Part shown: piece by piece, positions 891-33,298 of the stretch
Numbering within the stretch: position 1 is the first letter of the stretch
Layout of the letters: every line of letters starts with the position of its first letter
From: a virus
Taxonomy: Duplodnaviria > Heunggongvirae > Uroviricota > Caudoviricetes
DNA: 40,395 nucleotides
Reading direction: 5' to 3' (one strand)
Virus record (IMG/VR): IMGVR_UViG_3300026488_000017
Location: 1-40,395 of that record
Program-made: the position numbers and the translations under genes
Notes under the pieces: model-generated
Told to the model about the DNA's origin: nothing
The model's database searches: none
Seen by the model: the letters and a program-made list of their open reading frames with translations, nothing else

Positions 891-898
891 TATTTATA
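891..898 (-). promoter_or_regulatory. T4-type late promoter TATAAATA
   Basis: Exact match, formed by the last Leu codon plus stop of the upstream ORF and followed by CTCACAAAAGGAG RBS. Confidence 0.75.
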
Positions 899-1265
899 GT
901 AAGTCGGCGTATTTGCCTAGTTTTATTCTTGCTACATCTTTGAGATAACACGAGAAATCGATAATATTCCCACCGAATCGTTCGGTGCGACCTACACTTT
1001 TTTCAATTACTATATTCTTATCCACGCTTTGTATCTTCTCGGCTAAGTCCTTAGCTATTACCTTACAAACAGATAGTTTATCATCAGAATAAAATTCTAT
1101 ATCTAGTTCAAAAATTCTTACTTTATTCTTAGGTTTCATATCAAAAATTTCGATTCCTTCTGTTTCAGCCCATTCAGCATATCCTAAAGTAGACATATCG
1201 CCATCTACTGTTAGTTCTTCATTTAAAATATCTTCAATCTCATCTATTATTTTTTTTGTTTTCAT
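894..1265 (-). CDS. Hypothetical 123-aa protein ending in KLGKYADLL (no ankyrin repeats)
   Basis: ORF track; shared C-terminal tag. Confidence 0.8.
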   Translation of the reverse strand: MKTKKIIDEIEDILNEELTVDGDMSTLGYAEWAETEGIEIFDMKPKNKVRIFELDIEFYSDDKLSVCKVIAKDLAEKIQSVDKNIVIEKSVGRTERFGGNIIDFSCYLKDVARIKLGKYADLL

Positions 1266-1267
1266 TA

Positions 1268-1897
1268 TTAGTCCATCAACGAGGCATATTTGCCTAGTTT
1301 TTTTAAGTTTTTTTGGTGTAATACAAATGTATCATATTTTTCTTTAAATTTCTTCGTTGAGCTATCAAACATAAGAGGTCTTTCGGGTGTCTCTAATAAA
1401 GTAGGTTTAGCCGAAAGAATCAGATTGAAGAGCTTTATGTCGCCACTCCTTAACGCTTCATTAAGTACTGTTCTACCGTTTTTGTCTTGTACATTTACAT
1501 CGGCACCTTTACGAATCAGTAATTCAGCAATATCTCTGTATCCATTAGAAACAGCTAATAACAGTGCTCCTCTTCCCGTACTAGGTTGTTGGTAATTGAT
1601 GTCTTTTGTTAATCTAATAAGAATATCAACCATATTGTACTCATCTGCATATACAGCTCTGATTAAAGCGTTGAATGCTCTCTTTGTCGATGTGATATTT
1701 ACATCAACTTTTGCTGCGAGTAAAAGCTTAACGATTTTTGTGTCGTGCTCTTCAATAGCTACGATTAAAGGGGTTTTTCTGTCTGAATGTTTACTCTTTA
1801 TCTCATAACCATTCAGGTTTTTGTCTTTATCTGCGATGAAATCTTCTATCGCTTCCCAATCACCATCGTGTATCGCTGATAATATTTTCTCTGTCAT
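1268..1897 (-). CDS. Ankyrin-repeat protein ending in KLGKYASLMD
   Basis: KTPLIVAIE, ALLLAVSNGYRDIAELLIRKGADVNVQDKNGRTVL repeats. Confidence 0.92.
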   Translation of the reverse strand: MTEKILSAIHDGDWEAIEDFIADKDKNLNGYEIKSKHSDRKTPLIVAIEEHDTKIVKLLLAAKVDVNITSTKRAFNALIRAVYADEYNMVDILIRLTKDINYQQPSTGRGALLLAVSNGYRDIAELLIRKGADVNVQDKNGRTVLNEALRSGDIKLFNLILSAKPTLLETPERPLMFDSSTKKFKEKYDTFVLHQKNLKKLGKYASLMD

Positions 1898-2601
1898 TAT
1901 AAATCTCCAAACGGGTTATTTTTGATATGAGTAGGTTTCTTTTGTACTGTAGCAAATGAATCATTAATACCATCACCATCAGTATCTACTGGAACCTCTT
2001 GTATCTCTTTAACTGCTATGACATCTTGCTTCACGGCTACATCATCTACGATACCAAAGGCCATATCTAAGTCTATCTTCTCGTATTCTTGGTCTAGCCC
2101 ATCTAGCTCATCACGATTTTCTGTGTAGGCTCTCGTAGTGATTTTGAAAATCTTCTTCTCATCGGCATACACAAACATATTATTATGTCCAGGTAGTTCA
2201 TCTTCAAAGTGAGTAATCTCCATAAATTTACCATTAGGTAGTTTTATTAAGTCTCCTATTATATCAGAATAACCCTTAGAGCTATATAAATCGGGATATA
2301 CTATTAACATATTGATTGAAGAGATAAACATATCCAAAGTAGCTGTACTAGATAGACCGAATTTAGAGAAAAAATCTCCACCAGCAGAGAAACCATCAGT
2401 TTCTTCTAATTTAACATTGAATTCGAAAATAGTGTCATTATTTACCTTGATAGATTGGTGTTCACCGAATATTTCATCGATACCAATTCTATCAGATTTA
2501 AAAAGTTTTATAGTAAGACCATAAAGTTCAATTTCTTCGTGGACCATATTACCATAAAGTTGGTATTCGTTTTCATCATTATAGTTAAAGTTAAATCCCA
2601 T
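1897..2601 (-). CDS. gp14: Neck/head-completion protein, T4 gp14-like
   Basis: IFGE, DFFSKFG, GDLIKLPNGKFMEI, KITT and C-terminal NPF segments recalled from T4 gp14; own late promoter and RBS. Confidence 0.72.
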   Translation of the reverse strand: MGFNFNYNDENEYQLYGNMVHEEIELYGLTIKLFKSDRIGIDEIFGEHQSIKVNNDTIFEFNVKLEETDGFSAGGDFFSKFGLSSTATLDMFISSINMLIVYPDLYSSKGYSDIIGDLIKLPNGKFMEITHFEDELPGHNNMFVYADEKKIFKITTRAYTENRDELDGLDQEYEKIDLDMAFGIVDDVAVKQDVIAVKEIQEVPVDTDGDGINDSFATVQKKPTHIKNNPFGDL

Positions 2602-2619
2602 TATAATCTCCTTTGTGAG

Positions 2620-2627
2620 TATTTATA
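2620..2627 (-). promoter_or_regulatory. T4-type late promoter TATAAATA
   Basis: Exact match, overlaps the stop of the 115-aa ORF, followed by CTCACAAAGGAG. Confidence 0.75.
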
Positions 2628-2970
2628 ATAAGTCGGCGTATTTACCTAGCTTAGTCGTATTGAAATCGAATGAATCCTCTATAACTAAGAAGTGCATATC
2701 ACCGTCTTTACTGTAATAATGTTCTTTATATTCTACTTTTAGTTTTATGCTTATTTTTCTAAATGCTTTATCTATTTTTGATTTGATTTTGAGGACTTCC
2801 ATCTTAGAAGCGTATTCTTGGACTACATCAACTCTTATATTCTGCTTACTGATAGTTACTACGGCATTATCGTATTCTCTTCTATTATAATCTATATAAG
2901 GTTTATTGTTTATTTTTACATATTCGTTAATAATATCAACGATTTCTTCTTTAGTTGTTTCTATACTCAT
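2623..2970 (-). CDS. Hypothetical 115-aa protein ending in KLGKYADLL (no ankyrin repeats)
   Basis: ORF track; N-terminus EEIVDIINE resembles DEIEDILNE of the 123-aa ORF. Confidence 0.8.
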   Translation of the reverse strand: MSIETTKEEIVDIINEYVKINNKPYIDYNRREYDNAVVTISKQNIRVDVVQEYASKMEVLKIKSKIDKAFRKISIKLKVEYKEHYYSKDGDMHFLVIEDSFDFNTTKLGKYADLL

Positions 2971-3488
2971 TAGTCATCTCCTAGTAAGTCTGCGTACTTA
3001 CCTAATTTTTTCTTATTTTGCTGTTTGAAAGCTTCTTTTATTTTATCTTCCACACCCCTACCCCTAGCACTCTTTAAATCACTCTCACGAACGATTGCTC
3101 CATCCTCGATTAGTTTATTGACTATCGAAGCATTGTCTTTGTAGATACTCTGGCTTAGTGCTGATAGACCCTTTCTTGATACTAAATTAATATCAATTCC
3201 TTTTACCTTTAGTAGAGGCAAAATCATACTAGGTCTATTGATTTGAACAGCTATCATCAATGCAGAATCACCGATAGGACTTTTCTTGGGTATTTTATTG
3301 GGTTCTATATCTTTCTGTCTTATAAGCCAATTTAATATTCTCGTAGATTTATTAAGAACAGCTGTCGTTAATAATGTTTCGTTTGTGTCTAGTACATAAT
3401 TAACATCAAAATGACCGTCTTGTATAAGAGCTTTGAATTCAATCACAGCATCTTCGGATATTGCTCTTTCTATTATAGTATCAGTCAT
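2970..3488 (-). CDS. Ankyrin-repeat protein ending in KLGKYADLLGDD
   Basis: ETLLTTAV, GDSALMIAVQ, GIDINLVSRKGLSALSQS. Confidence 0.9.
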   Translation of the reverse strand: MTDTIIERAISEDAVIEFKALIQDGHFDVNYVLDTNETLLTTAVLNKSTRILNWLIRQKDIEPNKIPKKSPIGDSALMIAVQINRPSMILPLLKVKGIDINLVSRKGLSALSQSIYKDNASIVNKLIEDGAIVRESDLKSARGRGVEDKIKEAFKQQNKKKLGKYADLLGDD

Positions 3489-3808
3489 TAAAAATCACCT
3501 AGTAAAGCAGCATATTTACCTATTTTTTTAATTTTAGGGTTTTTCAATAGTTTTATGATTGATTTATCAGAACACAAATCAAACACACCCATCTTCATAA
3601 TGTTCTTTATTGTTAAATCTGGGTTGTAACCCATAATAAGTTCCACCATATCATTACTTCTATAAGTAGTCCCATCATTAGCAGCAACGATAATAGCAGT
3701 TACACCATTTGCATTTTGTGTATTGACATCGAAACCACCTTCTAGTGCTTTCTTAACTTGTTTTTCATTGTTCTCTCTTATGTATTTGAAAAGTGTTTGG
3801 ATATCCAT
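3488..3808 (-). CDS. Short ankyrin-repeat protein ending in KIGKYAALLGDF
   Basis: GFDVNTQNANGVTAIIVAA. Confidence 0.88.
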   Translation of the reverse strand: MDIQTLFKYIRENNEKQVKKALEGGFDVNTQNANGVTAIIVAANDGTTYRSNDMVELIMGYNPDLTIKNIMKMGVFDLCSDKSIIKLLKNPKIKKIGKYAALLGDF

Positions 3809-4143
3809 TATATGTCTCCTAGTAAGTCTGCGTACTTACCTAATTTTTTCTTTTTGATAAGTGCTTTCATACCTTTATTTATGATTTTGAGTATATCTCT
3901 CATACTATTATTATCTTTCAGTAAACTAGTTACAGAATAGCCCCATTTATTTTCTATTTTCATATCGGGGTCGAAAGGCATAATGACTTTAACGAGTTCT
4001 TCATCATAATTGCTTGTACCTATATGTAGAGCTGTGTTGCCGTCTTCATTTTGTGTATTGACATCGAAACCATCTTCAAGTGCAACTTGCACTTCGTGGT
4101 ACAAACCTGCTTTTATCTTATTAAAGAATTTCTTAGCATCCAT
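3808..4143 (-). CDS. Short ankyrin-repeat protein ending in KLGKYADLLGDI
   Basis: GFDVNTQNEDGNTALHIG; close paralog of 3488-3808. Confidence 0.9.
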   Translation of the reverse strand: MDAKKFFNKIKAGLYHEVQVALEDGFDVNTQNEDGNTALHIGTSNYDEELVKVIMPFDPDMKIENKWGYSVTSLLKDNNSMRDILKIINKGMKALIKKKKLGKYADLLGDI

Positions 4144-4559
4144 TAGTCATCTCCTAGTAAGTCGGCGTACTTACCTAATTTTTTCTTATTTGCTTTCTTT
4201 GCTAGTTTTTCTTCTGCTTTATCGAATAATTTAGCAATAGATGAATCTCGTACATACTCTCTCGGAAGGTTATTATGATTATTTGGTATGGTTATATCAG
4301 CACCTGCTTCCAATAATATACCAATCATAGTAGCTAATCTTTTAAAAGTAGCCATCCATAATGTAGTTTCATTTCTTTTATTCACTACATTAATATCGAT
4401 ACCTAATTCTATGAATAATCTAACTTTTCTTGAATCACCACTTAGTACAGCAAGATGCAAAAGACTCTCACCTTTTGAGTCCAACTGGCTCAAATTGATT
4501 TCGCCTGATGCTATCTTTGCTTTTAGTTCTATTATGTTATTTTTGATAACGACATTCAT
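4143..4559 (-). CDS. Ankyrin-repeat protein ending in KLGKYADLLGDD
   Basis: GESLLHLAVLSG, GIDINVVNKRNETTLWMA, GADITIPN. Confidence 0.92.
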   Translation of the reverse strand: MNVVIKNNIIELKAKIASGEINLSQLDSKGESLLHLAVLSGDSRKVRLFIELGIDINVVNKRNETTLWMATFKRLATMIGILLEAGADITIPNNHNNLPREYVRDSSIAKLFDKAEEKLAKKANKKKLGKYADLLGDD

Positions 4560-6628
4560 TAGTATTCTCCACCTAAGTAACTCATATACTTATAAGTACC
4601 ACCTAGTAATTGTTTAACATTATTATATGTCGTTTTGCTGTTGAGAATAACATTGAAACTAAATTTCTTCGATTTACCCACCTTACAAGCTTTAGCAAGA
4701 TTCTTAATATTCTCATTAGATTGTATATCTGAATCTGTAAAAAGAACCTGATTGAAATCTTCCTTTAAGAATTTCTTAATAATTAAGAAAATATCGTGAG
4801 GAAATTCTGTACCACCACCCCAACTTAATTGAAAAAGTTTCTTGATAGGTTTAGGTTCATCTTTAATCTGAATCTTTGACAAATCTTTAGATGCAAGAAG
4901 CTCTTTAGGTGAATCTAATTCTTGATAAGTGTGTTTCTTCTTCTTATGGTCTAAGTTGATTTTGTACACTCTGTATTTGCTATCAAATCTAATAATCCAC
5001 ATACTCTTAATACCATTAGTTAGGCTTTTGTTAATAAGTTTAAGTAGTTCTACTGATACACCTTGTATAGTACTAGCCATCGAGCCAGAACTGTCTAAGA
5101 TGAATAAAAGTGATTGACTCTCATCATCTTCATAACGGACTCCATTCTTCATAGCAACTTTGTCATTACCCATAGCTAACTGACCACGAGTTCTCTTGTG
5201 CATCTTAGTGCTCGTTTCTTCTTCAATTTGAACTGCTTTAGGCATCATTTTCTTAATCAGTTGTTCCCATCTAATAGGCTCACCTTCTTTAAGATTTTCT
5301 AATTTAGCATCGATTTTATCTTTTCTATCTTGTTCAGCTTGTTCAAGTGATTCTTTTCTTTTATCTGAAGCATCTTTATCGGCTTGCTCTTCTTTCTTCA
5401 TTTCATCAATAGCATCATCCAATTCTTCTTGCGACATACCATCATCAGCATCTTCAAAATTTTCATCAGCATCTTTGAAAGCGTCATCTATTTCACTATC
5501 GCTGTCTTCAGATTTTTCTGAATCTTCTGAATCCTCTCCGTCTTCACCTTTCGATGGTTTGCTGTCTGAATCACTTTCTTCGCCATCTTCGCTTTCACCA
5601 TCACTAGATTCACCGTCTTCGGATTCGCCATCTTCGCCATCTTCAGATTCTTCACTATCACCTGATTCACTTTCACCATCTTCTTGCTCTTGCTCTTCTT
5701 GTTCTTCATCGCCCTTTTCTTCGTGATTTTCATCCATATGGTCATCTTGTTGTTTGTCCATATCATCTTTATCATCTTCAGTAAGTTCTTTGAAATCTTC
5801 TATAATGGCATCTTGCATAGCATCCATACTGATATAGTTATCATAATTATAAGTATCAGAATATAACCCAATAGGTAGTTGGTCGTACCCATTTTTAACA
5901 AGATTATAGTTAGTGATATAATCACCTAAATAATTCTGCATCTTTCCAGTCATACCTTTCTTCTTTGATTGATAGAAGTGGTCTGCGTGAACGATATGAT
6001 AGATTTCGTGTAAAATAAGAAATTCTATATATGAATAACTATCAGGAACTTTCCCACCATTATGTGCGTACTGTGAACCTTTTGGTTTAAGGTCTTTCAT
6101 TTCACTATATTTAACAAGCTTCTTACAGAAATCAAGGTTAAATATGACATCACCTTCAGGACTTGCTGCTGCAGTCTTTACAGATTTTACCCAATCAGGT
6201 TGTTTTACGAAACTAGGTTGTGGTGTTAAGATTATATTAAGCTTGAGGCGTTTACCCGTGATAGGATTAACTATTTTGAGGAATGATTTATTCTTAGCTA
6301 GAATAACATTGAATAAATAGTAGAATATTTTCTCGTTGAATACAGTTTCTTCTGTATCTATCATATCAAATAATAGGCTTTCTACTATATTTTTTCTACT
6401 AGGAGCATAGAAAGAATCTGGTTTATCTTTCCACCCTTCTAATGTCTGTTTAATTTGGTCTTCTAATTCTAAATTGATAACGCTTACATCTTTACCTTGT
6501 TTAACGGCAATCTCAGCTATCATTTTCTTAACAAAAGGAGTGCTTAAATCGACTTCACTATATTTAGCACCCTCTCCTCTTGCCGAACTAACATTAACTG
6601 CTTCATTTATTGAATCGAATTTGTTCAT
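4559..6628 (-). CDS. Putative metallopeptidase (HExxH) + acidic linker + VWA domain protein (DUF2201-like)
   Basis: LHEIYH; D/E/S/G-rich linker; MIDAS DSSGS, GGGT and TD motifs. Confidence 0.8.
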   Translation of the reverse strand: MNKFDSINEAVNVSSARGEGAKYSEVDLSTPFVKKMIAEIAVKQGKDVSVINLELEDQIKQTLEGWKDKPDSFYAPSRKNIVESLLFDMIDTEETVFNEKIFYYLFNVILAKNKSFLKIVNPITGKRLKLNIILTPQPSFVKQPDWVKSVKTAAASPEGDVIFNLDFCKKLVKYSEMKDLKPKGSQYAHNGGKVPDSYSYIEFLILHEIYHIVHADHFYQSKKKGMTGKMQNYLGDYITNYNLVKNGYDQLPIGLYSDTYNYDNYISMDAMQDAIIEDFKELTEDDKDDMDKQQDDHMDENHEEKGDEEQEEQEQEDGESESGDSEESEDGEDGESEDGESSDGESEDGEESDSDSKPSKGEDGEDSEDSEKSEDSDSEIDDAFKDADENFEDADDGMSQEELDDAIDEMKKEEQADKDASDKRKESLEQAEQDRKDKIDAKLENLKEGEPIRWEQLIKKMMPKAVQIEEETSTKMHKRTRGQLAMGNDKVAMKNGVRYEDDESQSLLFILDSSGSMASTIQGVSVELLKLINKSLTNGIKSMWIIRFDSKYRVYKINLDHKKKKHTYQELDSPKELLASKDLSKIQIKDEPKPIKKLFQLSWGGGTEFPHDIFLIIKKFLKEDFNQVLFTDSDIQSNENIKNLAKACKVGKSKKFSFNVILNSKTTYNNVKQLLGGTYKYMSYLGGEY

Positions 6629-6646
6629 ATTATCCTCTTTTAGTAC

Positions 6647-6654
6647 TATTTATA
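6647..6654 (-). promoter_or_regulatory. T4-type late promoter TATAAATA
   Basis: Exact match upstream of the VWA-ankyrin operon. Confidence 0.75.
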
Positions 6655-6668
6655 AAAAGTGTAGTTTC

Positions 6669-9593
6669 CTACACTTTTACAAACATATTAGACTTATTAG
6701 CTGTTGCTCTTTGAATAATAACATCATTCAATCCTGGATATCTTTGTAGTGACTCATTCTCGCCGTGTTCCATTAAACTTTCTGTTTCATTATCTCTTGC
6801 ATATCTAAGAACTGGTTTGAAACCTCTTTCTAAGAACATTTCAGATATAAGTGCAGTTATCTCACCGTTGAATTGGTCCCAATCAACCATAGCAAGTAAT
6901 TTCCATAGTCCAATCATATTATCGATACTATTCATAACACTATCGTAATCAACATAAACATCTAATATTTCTGAAATATCATCAACAAATGTGTTAGTAT
7001 CAGAATCAGTAATTGCTTTCTCTATAATTGGAACGATTCCATCATAATCTAAAAGAACATCTACATCAAATTTAGCACCTTCAAAAATTGATTTGATTGA
7101 TTGTAATGCTTCCGATTTAACAGAACTAAAACCATCTGTGATACGATACATATTTGAACCTATAATATCTTCAACACCAATCATTATTTTTTCAAAATCA
7201 GCATTTTCCATTTCACCTTTATCTTGTGCAATGAAACTAAGTACTTGCTTGTACTTGTTTAGCATAACTTTTTCCATAATGTTAGATAGTTCAAGTACTT
7301 CTTCTTCCGTGTACTGCTTTTCAAGTGTGAATCTTTTCTTAATCTTAATCATATTGTAAGCATCTATAATACAACCACTAATAGCTGAATCGTACTCACG
7401 AGCACTTATATAGAAAGTATTGAAACCATCTGTCCAAAAGAATTTTCTTTTATTGTGGTCTTCAATATCATCACCTTTAACATCTTCTGAAGATTCAAAT
7501 CTTTCAACCATTTGCTTAAGAATATCAATACTGATTTCTGTAATATTGAAACCAATCTTCTCATTAATGCCTATATTTGTTTTTTGTCCTTCTAAGTAAG
7601 CCATTACTTCATTGAAGTTTGCTTCAGAATCAATAACATCTACAACATCTTTAAAGTGGTCACTTAATTCAGTTGTTCCTGTATCAGTTGGATTCATTGC
7701 TGCGATAATCATAATGTTATCAGGAATCGTTAAAGCACCTACTTTTTTATCTAACATTAATGAACGAATTGAGTTAAATACTTTTGTGCTTGTTCTTGAA
7801 ATCTCATCAATGAAAAGAATGTGAGTGTATTTTGAATCTCCTTCAGGAAGCTTAGTAGCATCATAATCATTCATAATCTGTGTGAATAATGGTGGCTCTG
7901 AAAATTCTGTCGTTAAATCTTTACCATCACCTGATGGTGTTGTAAGACCCGTACTATCATCTGAATTTAGCGTCGAAGCATCGATTGTAATCTGATTTAG
8001 ATTGTATTTCTTAGCTATTTCTACAATAATTGTCGTTTTACCGATACCTGGCGCACCCGATATAATTGGAACATATTTTCTGTCATCGCCTAGTTTCAGT
8101 TTTGTTTGAATCTGTGAATCTAATGTACCTCTCCACTCACTAGGAGCTAATGGTGTTGCATCAGATGCATCGAATCCTGATGTTTCTTTGATAATGTCTT
8201 TAAGAACTTTTTCGTATTTCTTAAATAATTCTGAAACTTCTTCAGTAGCGTAATCTTTAAAGTTATCTCTAAGGAAAGTCATTAATTGTCTTGCTTCTTC
8301 CATTGTTTCCACTGGAATGTTGGCATTGATATACTTCATTATTTCTTCCCATCTTCTTGGAGAGATACGAATACCAGTTAAAGAGTCTTTTCCACCTAAG
8401 TCATCATCTGTGAATGCTTCAACGAATGCATTATATACTTCAGTACTAATCGGGTTCTTAACTTCTGTTGTTTCTTGTGTACCATCTTCATTATGGATAG
8501 TTTCAATTTCTTCATCATCACCAGTATTAACATCTGTGTTTGTGAATCTATCAGCCATATATCTAAGAAAATCTTCTTTTGAAGGTGTATCAAAGTTTAC
8601 TTTGTCAAATTGGTGATTTAGAGGAATATCATCTAATGAACCATCTGAATTATCCATATTTGAAGCATAGATAATGTAAACATTTGCAGGAATTGGTGTA
8701 TTACCTAGTTTACCATTAAGAATTGTACGGAAAAGATTTTGAATTCTAGCTGAACTTGAACGATAAAACTCATCCAAGAATAATACAGTAGCAAACTTAT
8801 CATTTACTTCATCTATTGTTTCTTTGTACTCATCTGCAAGTGGTTGAAGAATTTTATTTTTCTTTAAGAAAGCATTATACTCATTATCGGTAATTTTCTT
8901 CTTTTGTTTAAGTCTTGTAATAAGAGCTGACTCTGCTTGTACTACTTCGAAACCAGTCTTAGTTTCTTTGAAAGATGAACTCTCTGCAGCAGTCTTATTA
9001 CCTCTTCTTACAAGATAAGGAATATTGATAATATCTTCTTCAGAAATATGTGGAGCTTCAACTGTAATTACTTGCATTCTAAGTAATGACATAATGTTCT
9101 CTACTGTACGAGATTTACCAGTACCTGGGTCACCAGTTAATAGAAGTTTCGCTTGCCCACCACCTATCATATTCATTAGAACTACATCTAAAAAATCTTG
9201 ATATTTTGACTCTGATTTACCTTGTGGTATTTTAAGTTTCTTAGCTTTACCCTTAGATAATTCTTTAACTTTAGTAGTACTTGTACTGATTGAAATTTCT
9301 TCAGGAGCTTCTTCTGGTGTTTCACCTGAACCTACTTCAACTGATTTACCGTTTCTGATAATAATACCTTGATTTACCATAGCCGATAATTCTAATTGCG
9401 AAAAACTAGGAATCTCAACATCGAAATATTTATTGAATTCTTTTGTGAATCCCGAAACTGACTTGAAGCCTTTTACTTTCTCATCTTTAAACCAAGCTTT
9501 AATCTTATCGAATGAAATATCTACACCCAATTTCTTCTTAGTAACACTAGTTTTCTCTTTTTCGTTCATAAAGTCTTGTAATTTTAGTTCCAT
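6669..9593 (-). CDS. Large protein with two tandem MoxR/AAA_5-type ATPase modules
   Basis: GDPGTGKS/FLDEFYR/ASN and GAPGIGKT/FIDEISR/AMNP; sensor-2-like SPRRWE and SAREYD. Confidence 0.85.
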   Translation of the reverse strand: MELKLQDFMNEKEKTSVTKKKLGVDISFDKIKAWFKDEKVKGFKSVSGFTKEFNKYFDVEIPSFSQLELSAMVNQGIIIRNGKSVEVGSGETPEEAPEEISISTSTTKVKELSKGKAKKLKIPQGKSESKYQDFLDVVLMNMIGGGQAKLLLTGDPGTGKSRTVENIMSLLRMQVITVEAPHISEEDIINIPYLVRRGNKTAAESSSFKETKTGFEVVQAESALITRLKQKKKITDNEYNAFLKKNKILQPLADEYKETIDEVNDKFATVLFLDEFYRSSSARIQNLFRTILNGKLGNTPIPANVYIIYASNMDNSDGSLDDIPLNHQFDKVNFDTPSKEDFLRYMADRFTNTDVNTGDDEEIETIHNEDGTQETTEVKNPISTEVYNAFVEAFTDDDLGGKDSLTGIRISPRRWEEIMKYINANIPVETMEEARQLMTFLRDNFKDYATEEVSELFKKYEKVLKDIIKETSGFDASDATPLAPSEWRGTLDSQIQTKLKLGDDRKYVPIISGAPGIGKTTIIVEIAKKYNLNQITIDASTLNSDDSTGLTTPSGDGKDLTTEFSEPPLFTQIMNDYDATKLPEGDSKYTHILFIDEISRTSTKVFNSIRSLMLDKKVGALTIPDNIMIIAAMNPTDTGTTELSDHFKDVVDVIDSEANFNEVMAYLEGQKTNIGINEKIGFNITEISIDILKQMVERFESSEDVKGDDIEDHNKRKFFWTDGFNTFYISAREYDSAISGCIIDAYNMIKIKKRFTLEKQYTEEEVLELSNIMEKVMLNKYKQVLSFIAQDKGEMENADFEKIMIGVEDIIGSNMYRITDGFSSVKSEALQSIKSIFEGAKFDVDVLLDYDGIVPIIEKAITDSDTNTFVDDISEILDVYVDYDSVMNSIDNMIGLWKLLAMVDWDQFNGEITALISEMFLERGFKPVLRYARDNETESLMEHGENESLQRYPGLNDVIIQRATANKSNMFVKV

Positions 9594-9823
9594 TTTAATA
9601 CTCTCTCAAATTCTGTTGGATTTTCCTTTCTTAATTTCATATAGTTAATGTACTTTAACTTGTAATCGGGGTCTTTGAATTGTAACATCGGGATTTCGAA
9701 TCTCATTTCTGTTTCCGGGTTAAATGTCATCCATAATTCTTCTGTTGGACCTAGTACTTTGTGTTCTACATCGTTTGTTTCAGTTTTTGATGAAAACTCA
9801 TCAAAGCTCTTTAATGCTGCCAT
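9584..9823 (-). CDS. Hypothetical 79-aa late protein (KSFDEF N-terminus)
   Basis: ORF track; GAGG RBS; late promoter at 9848. Confidence 0.7.
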   Translation of the reverse strand: MAALKSFDEFSSKTETNDVEHKVLGPTEELWMTFNPETEMRFEIPMLQFKDPDYKLKYINYMKLRKENPTEFERVLKWN

Positions 9824-9840
9824 AATACACCTCTTTTAAT

Positions 9841-10314
9841 TTATAAGTATTTATACTCATCATTATTGTTATTTGGGTGAACTACATCATCTTCAGTCCA
9901 GACAATACTTTTCAAATAGTCTGTATAGTCATTGTCAAACCATTTATCTCTATTAAGAATCTCTGGTTTCTGTGTCTGGTAACTAAAATTTAGTTTGTTC
10001 CCAAAATGTAAGTTTCGTGATAATTTTAATTGTTTTGCTGTTAGAATCGTTAATGTTTTGGCAAATAATTCTTTTGATATGTTATTCTCATAAAGATTCA
10101 CGAGTGCAAAAGCATTGTCATTAAGACGGACTAAACCTTTAAGTGCAGTTATCTTTTTGCCTTTAATTTCTCTTTGTATAATAATTTCAATTTCAATCGT
10201 ATCATCGAACACGAAAGGTTTATTATTATAATTTCTTGAATTGAAAGCATTAATAGTATGTTCATTAATACTTAAACTTTTTAATTTTATGTTCTTATAT
10301 AGTAAACTAGGCAT
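9841..10314 (-). CDS. Hypothetical protein, 157 aa
   Basis: ORF track; GGAG RBS; overlaps upstream ORF. Confidence 0.7.
   Translation of the reverse strand: MPSLLYKNIKLKSLSINEHTINAFNSRNYNNKPFVFDDTIEIEIIIQREIKGKKITALKGLVRLNDNAFALVNLYENNISKELFAKTLTILTAKQLKLSRNLHFGNKLNFSYQTQKPEILNRDKWFDNDYTDYLKSIVWTEDDVVHPNNNNDEYKYL
9848..9855 (-). promoter_or_regulatory. T4-type late promoter TATAAATA
   Basis: Exact match, embedded in the Y-K-Y codons of the upstream ORF. Confidence 0.65.
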
Positions 10315-10525: not shown

Positions 10526-10638
10526 AATTTATCCTTTAATTCTTTATATACTATATTGTAACATATAATACCTTAAGGCTTTATTAATCTAAAAAGTTTG
10601 TTTGATTTGTTGTACTCCGAAGAGGAGTACGATTCTCT

Positions 10639-12111: not shown

Positions 12112-12132
12112 TGTATTCTCCATTATTTTATG

Positions 12133-12989: not shown

Positions 12990-12996
12990 TAAATTA

Positions 12997-14913: not shown

Positions 14914-14936
14914 AATGAATCTCCGTTGTTTATCAG

Positions 14937-14944: not shown

Positions 14945-14949
14945 TTTTT

Positions 14950-27803: not shown

Positions 27804-28193
27804 TTACCACTCGTCCATATAAGCTTCAGATTCACCGAAATCGTAATCGTATTTGAGTGCATCACCTTGTATGATATTTATGTGCAGTGTATTCCTGTTT
27901 GTTTCTGTGTCACCACAAATTTCTAGTAAGCGTTTTCGTGTCGTTTCTACATTATCAGGCATTAAATCAACACCGTAGATATTATGAAGAGGAATGCCTC
28001 TTTTGGCTAAAGCAGTTAAGAAATTACCTGAACCCATCGTTGGGTCTAAAAATGTCTTATCTTGTGGAGGGTTTGACCAGTCGATACCTAATGAATCTAG
28101 CATTTTTTGAACGAGAGAATCAGGTGTGAAAACCTCTCCCGTTTCTTTTACGCGTTCATCACGGTCATCGCTGTAGTGGAATTCTTCTTGCAT
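27804..28193 (-). CDS. N6-adenine MTase SAM-binding half (motifs X and I, no NPPY); probable start MQEEF at 28193
   Basis: GEVFTP, LDPTMGSGNFL, GVDLMPDN, IIQGDAL, then ends. Confidence 0.78.
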   Translation of the reverse strand: MQEEFHYSDDRDERVKETGEVFTPDSLVQKMLDSLGIDWSNPPQDKTFLDPTMGSGNFLTALAKRGIPLHNIYGVDLMPDNVETTRKRLLEICGDTETNRNTLHINIIQGDALKYDYDFGESEAYMDEW

Positions 28194-28194
28194 A

Positions 28195-28473
28195 TTAACT
28201 ATTGAGTTCTGATAATCCAACCCATAGATTATCTTCATTGAATGATTTACCTTGTAGAAATGCTAAAGCAGTACTACATTCAGATATAATGCCTTTATAG
28301 ATGTCTTCGCACTCTGAATGTTTGTTATCAGATAGAAAGTCTATGTTTTCTCCCATAGTACCCGAAATAATGCTGTTTGCTTCAGATTCATATTTTGTGT
28401 TCTTTGCAGTACTACGAATATTTGATACAATCTCATTGTATTTGTTTCTTTCTTGGTTAGTTAAATTTCTCAT
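28195..28473 (-). CDS. Hypothetical protein, 92 aa
   Basis: ORF track; AAGGA RBS; early promoter at 28504. Confidence 0.7.
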   Translation of the reverse strand: MRNLTNQERNKYNEIVSNIRSTAKNTKYESEANSIISGTMGENIDFLSDNKHSECEDIYKGIISECSTALAFLQGKSFNEDNLWVGLSELNS

Positions 28474-29661: not shown

Positions 29662-32043
29662 TTAAATATAACTTAAATATAAAGAAACATTTTCTGAAAT
29701 ACTCTCATCATTAAGTGTTACATTTCTAAATATTGATTCCACTGATTCCTTAAATAGCTCATTTGATAGGTTATTTACAAAATCTTCTTTATTTAGTACT
29801 ACAATGTCGCTCCAATCAGCACCGATTAAATCTTGTAAATTACTATGTCCTGCAATATAACTCAAATAAGGCAATGTTCTTACAATATCTATGTATGTTT
29901 CAAGTAACTTTTCATCTGCACTTGTTTTGTTGTTGAAATCTATAACAACTGAATCTCCAGTAGGTTTATCTTTTTTAGTTTTAGATACACTTAATGTTAC
30001 TGAGCTCTTTTGTGCTTTTGATTTTGATGTTTTAAGGTCTTCATCTATTGAAAGTAATTCTTCCCATAATCTAGCTACGATGTATTTTGTTGAATCAGTA
30101 TATTTCATCATTTTATCGATTTCAACTATAACTGTATCATCATTTGTACCTAAAGTAGTAACCGTCATACCATCGTTATTTTCTTTATATACTACATCAC
30201 AAAATGTACTTCTTTCTAAGAATATTTTTGTTTTTGTTTTACCATCTTCATTTGCTCTAATAGAACCATTTTCAACCAAAAACAACTCTGCAGCAAGATT
30301 ACAACTACCAAACGATACTCTCATTATATCGGCATCTTGAATTGGTTGAAATATTCTTATAGAGTAATCATAAGTTAAACATCTTGAAATCTTTTGATAA
30401 AATGTACCATTAACTTCATTGTCATCGAATACTACAACTCTCCTAATTTCGGGTATACTATATGAACGAGAACCCATTAACATACTAAATATTACAAGTC
30501 TTTTGTTTATACCTAATTTTCTCATTGTAGATATTTTCTCTTTAGTTTTAGCTTGAGCACTTCTATTAGTCATATCTTTCTCATTACCAGTTAATATCAT
30601 AGTTTCAAATTCAGGATACATTTCATTGAATTGTGATACAAACTCTCCTAATGCTTTAACAGTTCTACTTGGAGTAAATACCATTACTGCTTTAGTCTTT
30701 TTAAGATTAAGTTTTCGTTCTTGTTTGTCACTAACATACTGATAAACATAGTTTGCTAATGTGTCCCAAGTATCAGGCTGATTAAATGCTTGATTAACAT
30801 TCATAATTTCTAACGATGCTTGTTGATTTTTAGTCAAATTACTTAAATCAACACCTCTCTCTTGCATTGACTCTTTAATGTCTTCAATTATACCAACCAT
30901 ATCGAATTGTACATTATAGAAGTTTCTTCTTACTAATGTATCAACACCATAACCACTCAAATCTGTATAGTTAGTGTGTTCAAAATGTACATCTTCTTCA
31001 GCTATACCTTTAAATATTTTAGATGCTTTGTAAATACCAGTTCCTGACATAGCAATTTGTTTGATAACATTAAAGTTGCTCTTAATTGCTTCAAGGAATA
31101 ATACAGCTTTATCTGTATGTGAAGCTATGTCTGCTTCATCTGTAACCATTACCACCAAATCAGTTGGTGATATTTTTGTTTTCAGAACCTCAATTCGTTT
31201 ATCTATAAGTACTTCTATTGGTACATTCTTTTCTTTACCTGAACCGACAAATAATGAACCTTCTTCACATAAATCAAAACCACCGTGAATATCAAAACCA
31301 AACTCATTATAATCTGATACGAATGAAGCATTACTAGCAAGATTTTTTGATGCCGGTAAAAGAACAACTCTTTCATTTGTTTTGCTTGCTATTCTTTTAA
31401 CTATTTCATTTGTATTCAAAGTCTTTCCGAATCTAGGAGATAATGATAATAAGTTGTAAAATTTATCTGCTTTCATTAACATATTAACACTAAGGTCTTG
31501 CCAAGGTGTTAATTCATAATCTTTATATCCATCTTTACCCGTAAGTTTTTTTACAGCAGTTTCTTTTGCTTTGTAAATTCTTTGGTCTAATGCACTCATA
31601 AATTCTTTATCTGTTAGGAATTTATCAAATACAAATTGTTCGACTAGATTTTCTGTATGTACTGCAGAAGATGATTGTAAATTGATGAATTCAGCTCTTA
31701 ATTCACTAAAGTTATCAATCAAATCATCAATTTTTACTAATGACCATTCGTGTCTTTTTGATTTATTTTCTATTCTTTCAAAATGCAAGAAATTATCTGT
31801 TTTATGTAGTTCGCTACGAATATCATCATCTAGTTTAACATTTGTATTATCTTCTACCACCAAAGTACTTAATAGTATAATATCAGCCGTACTTGATGAA
31901 TTATCTTGTTGTTGTAGTCTATCTTCAATCTCTTGTGCTAATGTTAGTCCTTGTTTAACGAGTAACCAACCATCAGTCGTAGCAAGTGACCGAATAAATT
32001 CAGTAAGTGAAGTAAATGAGTATTGTTTGTTGATTGAGTTCAT
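29662..32043 (-). CDS. Restriction-enzyme-like protein: N-terminal T5orf172/GIY-YIG-like nuclease + SF2 helicase-like domain
   Basis: VKQGLT...IEDRLQQQ...DDDIR...HEW; PRFGKT, TDEAD, MSGT, YQKISR. Confidence 0.65.
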   Translation of the reverse strand: MNSINKQYSFTSLTEFIRSLATTDGWLLVKQGLTLAQEIEDRLQQQDNSSSTADIILLSTLVVEDNTNVKLDDDIRSELHKTDNFLHFERIENKSKRHEWSLVKIDDLIDNFSELRAEFINLQSSSAVHTENLVEQFVFDKFLTDKEFMSALDQRIYKAKETAVKKLTGKDGYKDYELTPWQDLSVNMLMKADKFYNLLSLSPRFGKTLNTNEIVKRIASKTNERVVLLPASKNLASNASFVSDYNEFGFDIHGGFDLCEEGSLFVGSGKEKNVPIEVLIDKRIEVLKTKISPTDLVVMVTDEADIASHTDKAVLFLEAIKSNFNVIKQIAMSGTGIYKASKIFKGIAEEDVHFEHTNYTDLSGYGVDTLVRRNFYNVQFDMVGIIEDIKESMQERGVDLSNLTKNQQASLEIMNVNQAFNQPDTWDTLANYVYQYVSDKQERKLNLKKTKAVMVFTPSRTVKALGEFVSQFNEMYPEFETMILTGNEKDMTNRSAQAKTKEKISTMRKLGINKRLVIFSMLMGSRSYSIPEIRRVVVFDDNEVNGTFYQKISRCLTYDYSIRIFQPIQDADIMRVSFGSCNLAAELFLVENGSIRANEDGKTKTKIFLERSTFCDVVYKENNDGMTVTTLGTNDDTVIVEIDKMMKYTDSTKYIVARLWEELLSIDEDLKTSKSKAQKSSVTLSVSKTKKDKPTGDSVVIDFNNKTSADEKLLETYIDIVRTLPYLSYIAGHSNLQDLIGADWSDIVVLNKEDFVNNLSNELFKESVESIFRNVTLNDESISENVSLYLSYI

Positions 32044-32110
32044 AATATTTTCCTTCTTTCTCTTTATATGTAATATTATAACATAAGTAACCTTACAGCC
32101 ACCTTAAATG

Positions 32111-32698
32111 CTAATATTTCTTGATAGGTAACCGCCACCCATATCTTATTGCTACTATTCTGATTAATATACCCGTACTGATAATCATTATTGAATACAT
32201 TGGTACGAGATATGTTAAAATTCCTATGATGATTGCTACTGTACCATAGAAACCCTCTGATAATAAAAACGGACTCTTACTCATTACTACATCACGAATA
32301 AGTCCACCACCAGTTGCTGTGAGTAACCCTAAGAATACAATACCCATAAAATTGAAATCGTATTCTATACCTATCAAGGCTCCACTATAAGCGAAGACGG
32401 CTAGACCAATAGTATCACTAAGGACGAACACTTTACTATCTTCAAGTTTCTGTACAGAATTTATTTTTAGGAAAAGGCTGATTACTATAATAGAGAGAGA
32501 AATAAATAATGGATAACTTTCAGTAAATATAAACGGCGTTCTATCTACTAATAAATCTCTAACAACACCTCCACCAAAAGCAGATATGAATGAGATAATA
32601 ACAATACCCAATAGGTCCATTTTATTTCTTACTGCAATAATAAATCCAGATATAGTGAAAGCGATAGTACCGATGAGGTCAAGGATAAGTAATTCTAT
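32111..32698 (-). CDS. Trimeric intracellular cation channel (TRIC/YadS-like) membrane protein; probable ATA start at 32698
   Basis: LDLIGTIAFTISG, GGGVVRD, DTIGLAVF, TATGGGLIRD, LPIK; AAAGGA lies 5 nt before ATA. Confidence 0.85.
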   Translation of the reverse strand: MELLILDLIGTIAFTISGFIIAVRNKMDLLGIVIISFISAFGGGVVRDLLVDRTPFIFTESYPLFISLSIIVISLFLKINSVQKLEDSKVFVLSDTIGLAVFAYSGALIGIEYDFNFMGIVFLGLLTATGGGLIRDVVMSKSPFLLSEGFYGTVAIIIGILTYLVPMYSIMIISTGILIRIVAIRYGWRLPIKKY

Positions 32699-32713
32699 GG
32701 GAGTCCTTTGAGG

Positions 32714-32731
32714 TTTATAAATATTTATAAA
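32714..32731. promoter_or_regulatory. Perfect 18-bp palindrome TTTATAAATATTTATAAA carrying a TATAAATA late promoter on each strand
   Basis: + strand 32716-32723, - strand 32722-32729; sits between divergent genes. Confidence 0.75.
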
Positions 32732-32752
32732 ATGAGAGTGAAGGAGAAAAAT

Positions 32753-33298
32753 ATGAAAAAAGATGTGATGGGTTTCCAAGACTTTGCTAGACTATTAGAT
32801 AGAGGTGATATGAATGATATTAGTAGAGCAATCGATGGAATCGACCTGAATCAGAAAGCACCAGCGTTTCACCTACCATTATTTCATATAGCTGTAGGTG
32901 GCGGGAATATGAATCTTATAAAATTAATGTTATCCAAGGGTGCTGATATTAATATAAAGGGTAGTGATGGTGCAGATGCAATGTTCGTTGCTGGTCGTAG
33001 AGGTGATGTCGATGTAATTAAATTTCTCGTAAAGAAAGGTGTGAGTGTAGATACTATTTCGGATGAAACGACTGCATTAGCACAAGCAGTCGTTAGTGGT
33101 TCATTTAATGCAGCGAAAGCTATGTTAGCTGGGGAACCTGATATTAGTGTAAAAACTTATGAGGGCAAAATAGTTGATTTAATGGATAAAAGTGGAAAAT
33201 TTAAGAAAATTGTTAAAGATTATAGAGAAGATGAAGAGGAAATTGAATTCCTCTCTAAAACGAAAAAACTAGGTAAGTACGCAGATTTACTGCGTTAA
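32753..33298 (+). CDS. Ankyrin-repeat protein ending in KLGKYADLLR (true start MKKDV at 32753); the only clear plus-strand gene
   Basis: LFHIAVGGGN...KGADINIKG, TTALAQAVVSG; AAGGAG RBS. Confidence 0.92.
   Translation: MKKDVMGFQDFARLLDRGDMNDISRAIDGIDLNQKAPAFHLPLFHIAVGGGNMNLIKLMLSKGADINIKGSDGADAMFVAGRRGDVDVIKFLVKKGVSVDTISDETTALAQAVVSGSFNAAKAMLAGEPDISVKTYEGKIVDLMDKSGKFKKIVKDYREDEEEIEFLSKTKKLGKYADLLR

Follow-up and report, generated by a model that had tools for sequence, protein, structure and literature searches.

Why should a dozen dissimilar late proteins of one phage end in the same nine residues? The proteins are encoded in a window of 40,395 nt (the whole stretch of DNA analysed, to which all coordinates refer) from an uncultured T4-like giant phage of 331 kb found at a hydrothermal vent. 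A preliminary description of the window reported 12 open reading frames (ORFs) with the C-terminal motif K[LI]GKYA[DSA]L[LM], and a six-frame motif scan combined with ORF translations recovered exactly these 12. Nine end in KLGKYADLL itself, and the non-consensus tags are KLGKYASLM (1268), KIGKYAALL (3488) and KIGKYASLL (14398); K1, G3, K4, Y5, A6 and L8 are invariant, and 0-3 residues separate the tag from the stop. The same description put all 12 ORFs on the plus strand, which proved wrong for 11 of them, and it correctly predicted that the ORF truncated at the window's left edge would also carry the tag. The carriers are as follows.

Carrier 1, 894-1265, minus strand: 123 aa, no Pfam domain, ends KLGKYADLL-stop
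Carrier 2, 1268-1897, minus strand: 209-aa ankyrin protein, ends KLGKYASLMD
Carrier 3, 2623-2970, minus strand: 115 aa, no Pfam domain, ends KLGKYADLL-stop
Carrier 4, 2970-3488, minus strand: 172-aa ankyrin protein, ends KLGKYADLLGDD
Carrier 5, 3488-3808, minus strand: 106 aa, sub-threshold ankyrin signal, ends KIGKYAALLGDF
Carrier 6, 3808-4143, minus strand: 111-aa ankyrin protein, ends KLGKYADLLGDI
Carrier 7, 4143-4559, minus strand: 138-aa ankyrin protein, ends KLGKYADLLGDD; its start and the VWA-peptidase stop overlap
Carrier 8, 12997-13488, minus strand: 163 aa, no Pfam match, ends KLGKYADLLDV
Carrier 9, 13488-13961, minus strand: 157-aa ankyrin protein, ends KLGKYADLLGVL
Carrier 10, 13961-14398, minus strand: 145-aa ankyrin protein, ends KLGKYADLLGES
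Carrier 11, 14398-14913, minus strand: 171-aa canonical ankyrin protein, ends KIGKYASLLGDD
Carrier 12, 32753-33298, plus strand: 181-aa ankyrin protein, ends KLGKYADLLR
Carrier 13, 1-144 (first 48 codons), minus strand: 177-aa ankyrin protein whose end (KKLGKYADLLGDI) lies past the window's left edge

Two further tagged ankyrin genes follow carrier 13 beyond the window edge, and a motif search of the whole genome (331,651 bp, of which three IMG/VR contigs are pieces), as proposed in the preliminary description, gave 26 carriers at nine separate places on both strands. Outside this phage, an exact C-terminal tag was found neither in IMG/VR nor in 185,579 genomes nor in JGI metagenome contigs, which makes a chance origin untenable. 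The bacterial matches among those genomes are all internal, and mostly represent a single transmembrane-looking segment (GLLKLGKYADLFPSAAVHGMLAAI) that recurs in Flavobacteriaceae-type genomes.

All 12 window carriers have the late-promoter motif TATAAATA upstream and co-oriented, as had been claimed, and this placement extends to all 26 carriers. Seven carriers or array heads possess a TATAAATA of their own 9-24 nt before the start codon; the remainder are co-transcribed behind a TATAAATA, with no opposite-strand gene in between. Minus-strand terminator-like sites are absent across 1-15200, a region that contains 11 carriers. The neck gene said to accompany the carriers does lie inside their array. 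The promoter motifs concerned are listed below.

14937-14944, minus strand: TATAAATA 24 nt before carrier 11, heading a four-carrier array
6647-6654, minus strand: TATAAATA 19 nt before the VWA-peptidase gene, heading its operon with carriers 7-3
2620-2627, minus strand: TATAAATA overlapping the stop of carrier 3, heading the neck gene and carriers 2 and 1
891-898, minus strand: TATAAATA overlapping the stop of carrier 1, heading a 242-aa gene and three tagged ankyrin genes past the window edge
32716-32723, plus strand: TATAAATA preceding carrier 12

The residues that follow the LL of the tag double as DNA signals. The next, overlapping gene takes its Shine-Dalgarno sequence from the GGAG in ...CTA GGA GAT GAC TAA TG, and the final codons of carrier 1, CTA TAA ATA, constitute the late promoter motif of the gene behind it.

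Is it the peptide or the underlying DNA that is conserved? Where tag positions hold the same residue, the frequency of identical codons in the 26 copies is 0.517, versus 0.470 +/- 0.027 expected from genome codon usage. Codon choice is thus close to random, and selection is on the peptide, as synonymous variation had led the preliminary description to claim. Moreover, the carrier bodies, where comparable, are 25-45% identical (45% at most), and similarity between them is detectable in only 55 of 300 carrier pairs, whereas the tag is nearly identical throughout. A Pfam search of 25 carriers placed 15 above the ankyrin cut-off, with four weak signals and six proteins without a match; in the window, eight of the 12 exceed the cut-off, the carrier at 3488 is sub-threshold, and those at 894, 2623 and 12997 have no match. 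The tag therefore does occur on both ankyrin and non-ankyrin proteins. None of the carriers has a PRANC or F-box match in Pfam, and no signal peptides were found in their translations.

It is highly improbable that the peptide has no function as such, and is a nucleic-acid element (a ribosome-binding site, promoter, or recombination or duplication joint), a relic of recent tandem duplication, or a capping helix of the ankyrin stack. An element of that kind would account for the Shine-Dalgarno and promoter sequences after LL, for the preference for CTA as the last Leu codon of the tag (14 of 26, versus 18% genome-wide), and for the nearly uniform tag DNA of one relative (L105, below), but not for residues that stay invariant in nine codons no more alike than codon usage predicts, nor for tags scattered over nine genomic places and both strands on bodies that have diverged so far. 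A capping helix agrees with an AF2 model of carrier 11, in which the tag is the end of the C-terminal helix; however, this end is of low confidence, which falls to 65 and then 45 over the tag, and six carriers lack any ankyrin signal, while related tags occur on DUF285 and LRR-like proteins in relatives. These observations support the earlier view of a portable peptide tag.

What, then, might read the tag? The sliding clamp (gp45-type), bound by T4 gp43, gp33 and gp55, had been named as a candidate. Its T4 ligand is a short hydrophobic C-terminal linear motif on several T4 proteins, just as the tag is one on many proteins of this T4-like phage, and KYA[DS]LL(GDF) superficially resembles the ends of T4 gp43 (...KASLDFLFG) and gp55 (...SLDFLYEAND). 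However, whereas the two T4 proteins share SLDFL[FY], the gp43 and gp55 homologues of the present phage end in ...DAQIDEDEW and ...LEDISEEW. By analogy with T4, the [DE]EW ending, common to five more phage proteins, may be the clamp motif in this lineage. Since it is this ending that stands on the polymerase and late sigma factor of the phage itself, the clamp is an unlikely reader of the tag. The tag is present on no replication or transcription protein, 26 ankyrin binders on a trimeric clamp would be biologically implausible, and no gp45 homologue was detected in the phage. We accordingly give the clamp next to no credence.

The surroundings of the carriers point elsewhere. Fourteen of the 26 flank three genes, encoding a 494-aa protein, an AAA+ ATPase and a VWA-peptidase, within a single late region made up of about 14.9 kb of window sequence and the contig piece that adjoins it; the other 12 are elsewhere in the genome. 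Non-carrier genes of this region include the following.

144-872, minus strand: 242-aa protein with no family match, embedded between carriers; conserved beside the neck gene in the relative L103
1897-2601, minus strand: T4-type neck protein (PF11649), embedded between carriers
4559-6628, minus strand: VWA-peptidase, 689 aa (phrog_1314), first gene of the late operon that runs into carriers 7-3
6669-9593, minus strand: MoxR-type protein, 974 aa, with two AAA+ modules (phrog_1297; AAA, AAA_5), partner of the VWA-peptidase
9584-9823, minus strand: 79-aa protein, preceding the AAA+ gene
10639-12123, minus strand: P-loop protein, 494 aa (phrog_1250), between two carrier arrays

The 689-aa protein consists of an N-terminal HExxH metallopeptidase-like domain (DUF2201_N; HEIYH), a long acidic linker and a C-terminal VWA domain with the MIDAS sequence DSSGS. 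As the HExxH and MIDAS residues are invariant across 40 homologues, the machine looks catalytically competent. Its VWA-peptidase is a candidate reader or processor of the tag. The C-terminus of the 79-aa protein (...FERVLKWN) is kept at the same position in the relatives L106, L108, L109 and L110. The 974-aa and 689-aa proteins belong to the MoxR/metallopeptidase-vWA pair of group 2.2 jumbo phages, of the N4 gp24/gp25 type (phrog_1297 plus phrog_1314). The passages on this pair in Iyer et al. 2021 (PMC7824862) predict a role in virion assembly and proteolytic processing, and name neither client proteins nor a recognition tag. What is new here is that arrays of tagged binders are wrapped around the pair, with tags specific to each lineage.

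We tentatively favor, short of even odds, a late docking tag whose reader is the AAA+/VWA-peptidase machine and whose purpose is probably virion loading or processing. K[LI]GKYA[DSA]L[LM] would then dock its carriers as a portable C-terminal peptide, probably the last part of a short amphipathic helix that follows a lysine-rich linker, and would address a late arsenal of small binders (ankyrin proteins here, DUF285 and LRR-like proteins in relatives) to one phage-encoded reader. The most likely reader would be the MoxR-type double-AAA+ ATPase with its HExxH-metallopeptidase/VWA partner, whose genes lie amid the carrier arrays. The variation of the acidic tag residue (D/S/A) argues against simple MIDAS coordination. 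A complex prediction for the peptidase domain, the VWA domain and Zn with a 32-residue tag module scored 0.00, equal to no answer in the tool's scale. Capsid-targeting-like leaders, matched by eye and regular expression only, are present on the AAA+ protein (MELKLQDFMNE), the 79-aa protein (KSFDEF...E), the 494-aa protein (KSFGTFMELNE) and the 689-aa protein (MNKFDSINEA). Such leaders would bring the machine, together with docked or processed ankyrins, into the prohead, from which the binders may enter the next cell along with the DNA and encounter proteins of that host.

The T4 capsid-targeting sequence (CTS) is an N-terminal peptide of about 10 residues (MKTYQEFIAE-type) that the prohead protease cuts off after Glu. 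T4 internal proteins share only this sequence, by which anti-defence proteins are loaded into the scaffolding core so that they can be injected (PMC3012670). In both phages, a short terminal peptide is all that hypervariable proteins have in common (IPI, IPII, IPIII and Alt in T4), and the present carriers are of the late class that head loading of this type would need. This likeness invites the possibility that the tag loads the capsid directly; a packaging or ejection component of the virion had also been among the candidate partners in the preliminary description. The tag itself would bind the scaffold core, the portal, the prohead protease or the inner surface of the major capsid protein, with no need of the AAA+/VWA pair. 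The carrier arrays are interleaved with the neck gene, and the genome encodes a T4-type head module in full (portal, gp21-like protease, gp22-like scaffold and gp23-like capsid protein). The tag also tolerates 0-3 trailing residues, so it does not depend on a free carboxylate at one set position. Nonetheless, the present tag differs from the CTS in being C-terminal, unrelated in sequence, devoid of a Glu site and attached to ankyrin binders. The phage already has classical N-terminal capsid-targeting leaders (MKKFSEFVNE...), none of them on a carrier, and their presence on other proteins makes the tag a second, separate label. In addition, the C-termini of the protease and scaffold are unlike the tag, and direct loading leaves unexplained why arrays in six lineages lie beside the AAA+/VWA-peptidase pair and not the head module. 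We consider it unlikely. Two other kinds of short C-terminal peptide, the cargo-loading peptides of encapsulins and the targeting signal of the HK97 maturation protease, likewise direct cargo into an HK97-fold shell and do not have to stand at the exact end; however, the tag is unrelated to the GSL-type consensus of the former, and the present carriers are not encoded beside the capsid gene.

Those six lineages provide the comparative evidence for docking on the AAA+/VWA-peptidase machine. Relatives were located through VWA-peptidase homology, and percentages denote VWA-peptidase identity. Between 42 and 79%, they have lineage-specific tags on DUF285, LRR-like and ankyrin carriers: six copies of [KS][LI]GKY[ASK][DE]LL in L103 (79%); three DUF285 proteins ending [RN][LMI]G[LI]F[IM][DE]ILEL directly after the VWA gene in L104 (59%); 22 LRR-like proteins ending S.GFR.LLG, which flank the VWA gene on either side, in L105 (57%); four carriers ending [KN]LG.L..L[LP].L, at least two of them DUF285 proteins, 4-9 kb downstream in L109 (55%); and, in L108 (42%), a single protein with the ending RIGILQRFI whose gene separates those of the VWA and AAA+ proteins. 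The tag itself is thus present in the nearest relative, and motifs of the same pattern at the same position occur in four more, with a common core of basic-hydrophobic-G-x-hydrophobic-x-x-hydrophobic-hydrophobic. The more distant versions may have a common origin, although the likeness between lineages rests on 7-9 residues and those of L105, L108 and L109 could be convergent. L106 and L107 (36-38%) have the same pair and no tagged array within 10 kb. The proposal that the neighboring machine is the partner gains from comparative genomics, although gene neighborhood in the hyperplastic regions of giant phages can be incidental. Since it occurs on dissimilar late proteins, and its versions in relatives usually lie beside one ATPase/zinc-peptidase pair, the tag looks like a docking label; it is seemingly undescribed, as no published description was found in a literature search.

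A host hub, for example an AAA+ protease such as ClpXP, ClpAP, Lon or FtsH, might be docked instead, with the tag serving either to tether the carriers as adaptors or as a degron that keeps them short-lived, or the tag might be read by a host secretion system. In L106 the VWA-peptidase gene is immediately followed by phage genes for ClpS and a ClpA-like ATPase, and L107 has ClpS near it. The combination of a variable repeat binder with a short constant C-terminal module also parallels the poxvirus ankyrin/PRANC (F-box-like) adaptors that hijack a host ligase, families with many ankyrin paralogues and diverse repeats in which the PRANC module docks the binders on one hub. PRANC is a 3-helix box, however, and the present module has about 9 residues, or at most about 25 with the preceding helix; Skp1 and cullin are not known from bacteria, and the hub of the present carriers is probably phage-encoded. 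The tag version differs among closely related phages, a pattern to be expected of a phage reader that co-evolves and less of a host hub that is conserved. Proteins made late by a lytic T4-type phage have little time to act on the host cell that produced them, and among the 185,579 genomes no cellular protein bears the tag at its C-terminus. A variable tail of 0-3 residues is atypical of carboxylate-dependent degrons, and the carriers lack signal peptides. A host-directed motif is, on balance, improbable.

The genome itself offers a parallel case: xPH[LI][FL][LI]-COOH, a second tag, is found on about 26 unrelated small proteins grouped around another, small MoxR(AAA_5)/DUF2201 pair, whose two genes lie behind early-type TGTTATAAT promoters. 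Against the favored reading, four carriers of K[LI]GKYA[DSA]L[LM] in G002 have this small early pair, and not the large late one, at a distance of 4-13 kb. In L110 proteins with an ending like the second tag are encoded between the two genes of the small pair.

A six-frame scan of the window found the motif GKYA twelve times, always inside the C-terminal tag K[LI]GKYA[DSA]L[LM], and translation of the open reading frames (ORFs) recovered the same twelve tagged proteins that the preliminary description had listed. The tag lies 0-3 residues from the stop codon in all twelve; nine copies read exactly KLGKYADLL, and K1, G3, K4, Y5, A6 and L8 are invariant. All carriers had been placed on the plus strand, which applies only to 32753-33298; the other eleven lie on the minus strand. 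Taking a score over the Pfam gathering cut-off for Ank, Ank_2, Ank_3, Ank_4 or Ank_5 as membership of the Ank clan, eight of the window carriers are ankyrin-repeat proteins; the carrier at 3488 is sub-threshold, and those at 894, 2623 and 12997 have no family. Among the 25 carriers scanned genome-wide, 15 are ankyrin proteins above the cut-off, four are sub-threshold and six have no match. In an alignment of the last 32 residues, weak amphipathicity is apparent some 10 residues ahead of the tag, with a Lys-rich linker after it. With a paralogue alignment as input, the AF2 model of the 171-aa carrier 14398-14913 (pLDDT 91) consists of paired-helix repeats; its ankyrin stack scores >95, and the tag forms the end of a C-terminal helix (residues 149-168) with a confidence of 65 and then 45. 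A single-sequence AF2 fold of the carrier 4143-4559 was unusable (pLDDT 38.6).

The window forms the initial 40 kb of an IMG/VR fragment 104,989 bp in length. Two more IMG/VR contigs (79,663 and 146,525 bp) match its G+C content of 33% and have dozens of 50-70-nt intergenic repeats in common with it, and the three pieces (G000, G001 and G002) have almost no genes in common besides ankyrins. A 331,651-bp ENA contig from a hydrothermal-vent metagenome encodes the window's proteins, and in this contig the window's left edge abuts the right-hand end of the 79.7-kb piece. Thus, the three pieces represent one uncultured phage of ~331.6 kb with ~480 proteins. Its T4-type genes include those for portal, protease, scaffold, capsid, gp43, gp41, gp44, gp55 and UvsX, the head module being at G001 15016-20154, and a megablast of 25 kb against a phage collection returned a tRNA match only. 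Genome-wide, the carriers number 26 and are spread over nine places, with both strands represented. The truncated ORF at 1-144, which had been predicted to be tagged, indeed encodes an ankyrin protein of 177 aa with the ending KKLGKYADLLGDI; beyond the window edge it is followed by two further tagged ankyrin genes. About 9 kb past that edge, L034 (a contig of the same genome) encodes a 709-aa methyl-accepting chemotaxis-type protein with NIT, MCPsignal and CZB domains (19641-20729).

We show herein that the tag is a real portable peptide, selected as a peptide. Almost all nucleotide variation in its nine codons is synonymous, so that the synonymous-codon argument made earlier for the window holds over 26 copies. 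The fraction of identical codons at same-residue positions, 0.517, is close to the 0.470 +/- 0.027 obtained by random draws from the genome's codon usage; the DNA is therefore conserved no more than the peptide needs. When the tag is left out, the best pair of carrier bodies is 45% identical, and similarity is detectable in 55 of 300 pairs. The residues after LL do serve the DNA: the GGAG in ...CTA GGA GAT GAC TAA TG acts as ribosome-binding site for the next gene, which overlaps, and carriers 894 and 2623 stop right after LL, where CTA TAA ATA is the late-promoter motif of the next gene. At two sites, therefore, the same eight bases serve three purposes:

891-898, tag end (last Leu codon), stop codon and next promoter overlapping
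2620-2627, the same overlap

Since the post-LL residues double as ribosome-binding site or promoter, the functional tag is nine residues long; the 0-3 residues behind it have their role at the DNA level. Nonetheless, it is very unlikely that the tag as a whole is a nucleic-acid element, a relic of duplication or an element of the fold, given the near-random tag codons, the divergence of the bodies, and the existence of carriers that are non-ankyrin or DUF285 proteins. Several narrower candidates were rejected: a DNA-level repeat, by the codon test; an ankyrin capping helix, by the same non-ankyrin and DUF285 carriers; MIDAS coordination by the tag Asp, since that position is variable (D/S/A); and a sorting signal of the eukaryotic YxxΦ or dileucine type, since the spacing is wrong for one and the phage is of lytic type and comes from a vent metagenome.

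Across the three pieces there are 100 instances of the motif TATAAATA, and in 62 cases a co-oriented start codon lies within 60 nt. For seven carriers or array heads, a separate copy stands 9-24 nt ahead of the start codon, and the remaining carriers sit behind a copy with no opposite-strand gene between. No minus-strand terminator-like site was found across 1-15200, the region with 11 of the 12 window carriers. Together with the gp55 homologue encoded in the genome, this placement and co-orientation indicate, by sequence, that all carriers are late genes; the late-promoter placement proposed earlier for the window carriers holds and extends to every carrier of the genome.

In the collections searched, the exact tag is confined to this lineage. 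A profile of the tag module (32 C-terminal residues) searched against 1.84 billion representative proteins matched its own phage only (14 matches, E <= 0.001), and a word-based search with the last 40 residues found self only. When back-translated, the exact tag was C-terminal only in its own phage in IMG/VR, with two chance-level matches outside; in 185,579 genomes it gave 29 matches, all internal and none C-terminal, the bacterial ones being mostly one recurring transmembrane-looking segment in Flavobacteriaceae-type genomes. Matches that end a real ORF in JGI metagenome contigs all came from the same phage, the neck protein as bait found no related loci in IMG/VR, and we found no paper that describes the tag.

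Within one late region, 14 of the 26 carriers flank a pair of genes:

4559-6628, 689-aa protein: HExxH zincin-like domain (DUF2201_N), long acidic linker and VWA domain with intact MIDAS; heads the largest array
6669-9593, 974-aa protein just upstream of the 689-aa gene: two AAA+ modules

Matches were obtained to phrog_1297 (1e-40) and phrog_1314 (1e-11), as well as to AAA, AAA_5 and DUF2201_N. The 689-aa protein contains HEIYH and DSSGS, and the HExxH and MIDAS residues are invariant across 40 homologues. A MoxR-type AAA+ gene beside one for a protein with an N-terminal HExxH zincin-like and a C-terminal VWA/MIDAS domain defines the MoxR/metallopeptidase-vWA pair (Iyer 2021 group 2.2; N4 gp24/gp25 type), and 6669-9593 and 4559-6628 have this arrangement. 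Iyer et al. (PMC7824862) reported the pair in group 2.2 jumbo phages and predicted a role in virion assembly and proteolytic processing. At least 57 phage contigs encode a homologue of the 689-aa protein. Relatives were gathered with this protein as query and their contigs then read (identity to that protein in parentheses):

L103 (79%), six copies of [KS][LI]GKY[ASK][DE]LL around the same neck gene
L104 (59%), three DUF285 proteins ending [RN][LMI]G[LI]F[IM][DE]ILEL, immediately following the VWA gene
L105 (57%), 22 small LRR-like proteins ending S.GFR.LLG, which occupy the AAA+/VWA gap and continue past the VWA gene
L109 (55%), four carriers (at least two DUF285) ending [KN]LG.L..L[LP].L, 4-9 kb downstream
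L108 (42%), one L105-family protein ending RIGILQRFI, between the VWA and AAA+ genes
L106 and L107 (36-38%), within 10 kb no array of tagged proteins; ClpS nearby, in L106 also a ClpA-like gene

The DUF285 assignment in L104 comes from a Pfam match of 9e-111 for the one protein scanned. All versions have a common core, basic-hydrophobic-G-x-hydrophobic-x-x-hydrophobic-hydrophobic; the version itself differs per lineage, and the fold of the carriers varies among ankyrin, DUF285 and LRR-like. Such lineage-specific versions on changing folds are what one would expect if a docking peptide evolves in step with a reader encoded by the phage, and the recurrent position beside the AAA+/VWA-peptidase pair makes this pair the prime suspect as the reader. 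The preliminary description had named it among possible partners; genomic coupling in six lineages favors that proposal, and a complex prediction of the 32-aa tag module (25-paralogue alignment) with the peptidase domain (1-275), the VWA domain (470-689) and Zn gave 0.00, which speaks neither for nor against it. Our preferred reading, held at somewhat less than an even chance, is that the tag serves as a docking label for the late MoxR-type AAA+/VWA-metallopeptidase machine, which would read it and load or process an arsenal of late binders: the tag would dock the binders on the machine, and the docked binders would be loaded into the prohead or processed. The arsenal is probably virion-borne.

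Some features of these loci deserve mention on their own. At 2800-7000 of L103, a Logan contig and the closest relative, four of the six tags are one frame off their ankyrin ORF, each after a lysine-coding A-run; this is probably a homopolymer assembly error, the alternative being slippage at the A-run just before the tag. ClpS, accompanied in L106 by a ClpA-like double-AAA+ protein, adjoins the VWA-peptidase gene (L106 12262-14835; L107 1677-2024), a hint that the module is linked to proteolysis. The VWA-peptidases themselves (window 4559-4620; homologues in the relatives' contigs L103-L110) have a conserved C-terminus, [LI]GG.YKYMSY[LI], that is loosely tag-like (LG.Y..hydrophobic); NK.NMF[VI] is the ending of the AAA+ proteins, and F.R[VI][LM].W that of the small upstream protein. 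Such conserved tails could serve the machine's own subunits for docking.

The sliding clamp had also been proposed as a partner. T4 gp43 and gp55 end in SLDFL[FY], and a clamp motif of T4-type phages should end the phage's own polymerase and late sigma factor. The tag does not; both homologues end in another motif, an acidic one, which recurs in five other proteins:

G000 88220-91144, gp43 homologue ending DEDEW
G002 18767-19930, gp55 homologue ending SEEW
window 27804-28238, protein ending [DE]EW
G000 45046-46551 and 103057-103542, proteins ending [DE]EW
G002 14621-14992 and 15001-15297, proteins ending [DE]EW

The clamp is thereby disfavored, and a clamp motif is hardly credible as an explanation of the tag. 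By analogy with T4, [DE]EW may be the interaction motif for the clamp (or another hub) in this lineage, and would be a better candidate for it than the tag. A search of the three contigs with PF09116, PF02916 and T4 gp45 found no sliding clamp. The portal ends in a similar ...GDEQW.

The capsid-targeting sequence (CTS) of T4 is an N-terminal leader of ~10 residues, MK-x-[YF]-x-x-F-x-x-E, followed by a prohead-protease site after the Glu. The tag, in contrast, is C-terminal, has another sequence and lacks Glu, and the carrier N-termini are not CTS-like save for one loose regular-expression match (3808-4143, MDAKKFFNKIK) without a Glu-terminated leader. CTS-like leaders (M-K-x-F-x-x-hydrophobic-x-x-E) do occur on ~15 proteins, including the components of the AAA+/VWA-peptidase system:

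6669-9593, AAA+ protein, MELKLQDFMNE
4559-6628, 689-aa protein, MNKFDSINEA
9584-9823, neighboring 79-aa protein, KSFDEF...E
10639-12123, neighboring 494-aa protein, KSFGTFMELNE
23179-23403, MKKFSEFVNE
window 23534-23764; G001 24686-25057 and 4457-5221; G002 80656-81348 and 85683-86006, further CTS-like leaders

In T4, such a leader is the sole conserved part of diverse injected anti-defence proteins (PMC3012670). Given the late timing, the neck genes interleaved with the arrays and these leaders, the machine and with it the tagged binders may be destined for the prohead. That the tag itself is a direct head-loading signal seems unlikely. Still less probable is recognition by a host hub or as a degron: ssrA-type degrons are recognized by their terminal residues and free carboxylate at a fixed position, and 0-3 variable residues come after the tag. 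No PRANC or F-box family was found when 25 carriers were scanned with Pfam, which sets them apart from the F-box-like Ank/PRANC proteins of poxviruses.

A second tag, xP[HD][LI][FL][LI]-COOH (e.g. KPHLFL), exactly ends ~26 small proteins (70-240 aa) of the same genome, with no detectable similarity among them in 325 pairwise comparisons:

G000, outside the window, 52329-52556, 55409-55756, 72866-73297 and 102265-102600
G001, six proteins
G002, 16 proteins

They concentrate around a second, small MoxR(AAA_5)/DUF2201 pair (G002 124209-128270) and lie mostly behind early-type promoters; both genes of the small pair are 28-31 nt behind an early-type TGTTATAAT promoter. Moreover, L110, another relative's contig, encodes two proteins with a similar ending, NRPDLLI and TPYLLL, in the interval between both members of the corresponding small pair. 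With tags, temporal classes and MoxR/VWA pairs each numbering two in one genome, the case is circumstantial but coherent. A bolder proposal, which we consider a long shot, is that the tag plugs interchangeable ankyrin, LRR and DUF285 substrate receptors into a phage AAA+ unfoldase with a zinc-peptidase, i.e. a split FtsH-like machine on a MoxR/VWA chassis. The kit would be head-loaded via CTS-type leaders, injected with the DNA, and would degrade or remodel host defence proteins, with xPHLFL-COOH serving the second, early MoxR/VWA pair likewise. If so, the phage would bring a programmable machine that is a ubiquitin-free functional analogue of viral SCF-ligase hijacking.

Short address peptides let viruses and cells move many cargoes by one machine, and the T4 CTS is already in use for loading foreign proteins into phage heads. 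The novel results are the distinct forms that the tag takes in each lineage on other folds, their genomic link with the MoxR/VWA-peptidase pair, the case against the clamp, a second tag that has an early pair to itself, and confirmation of the 13th carrier. A C-terminal tag on 26 binders would list, from sequence alone, the probable delivered or processed effectors of a giant phage. It would also suggest clients for the widespread, uncharacterized phage MoxR/VWA-peptidase pair, for which we found no named clients, and could serve as a new cargo-loading handle. That each lineage has its own form of the tag, on ankyrin, DUF285 or LRR-like scaffolds, suggests that T4-like jumbo phages follow a common design principle.

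The TGTTATAAT element, an extended -10 that is early-promoter-like, lies in the 50-70-nt intergenic repeat, with 98 copies on the minus and four on the plus strand. Its sites, at 32033-32119 of the window and ~100 others in G000, G001 and G002, are the only DNA common to the three pieces, and the repeat resembles the mobile regulatory cassettes described for T4-type phages.
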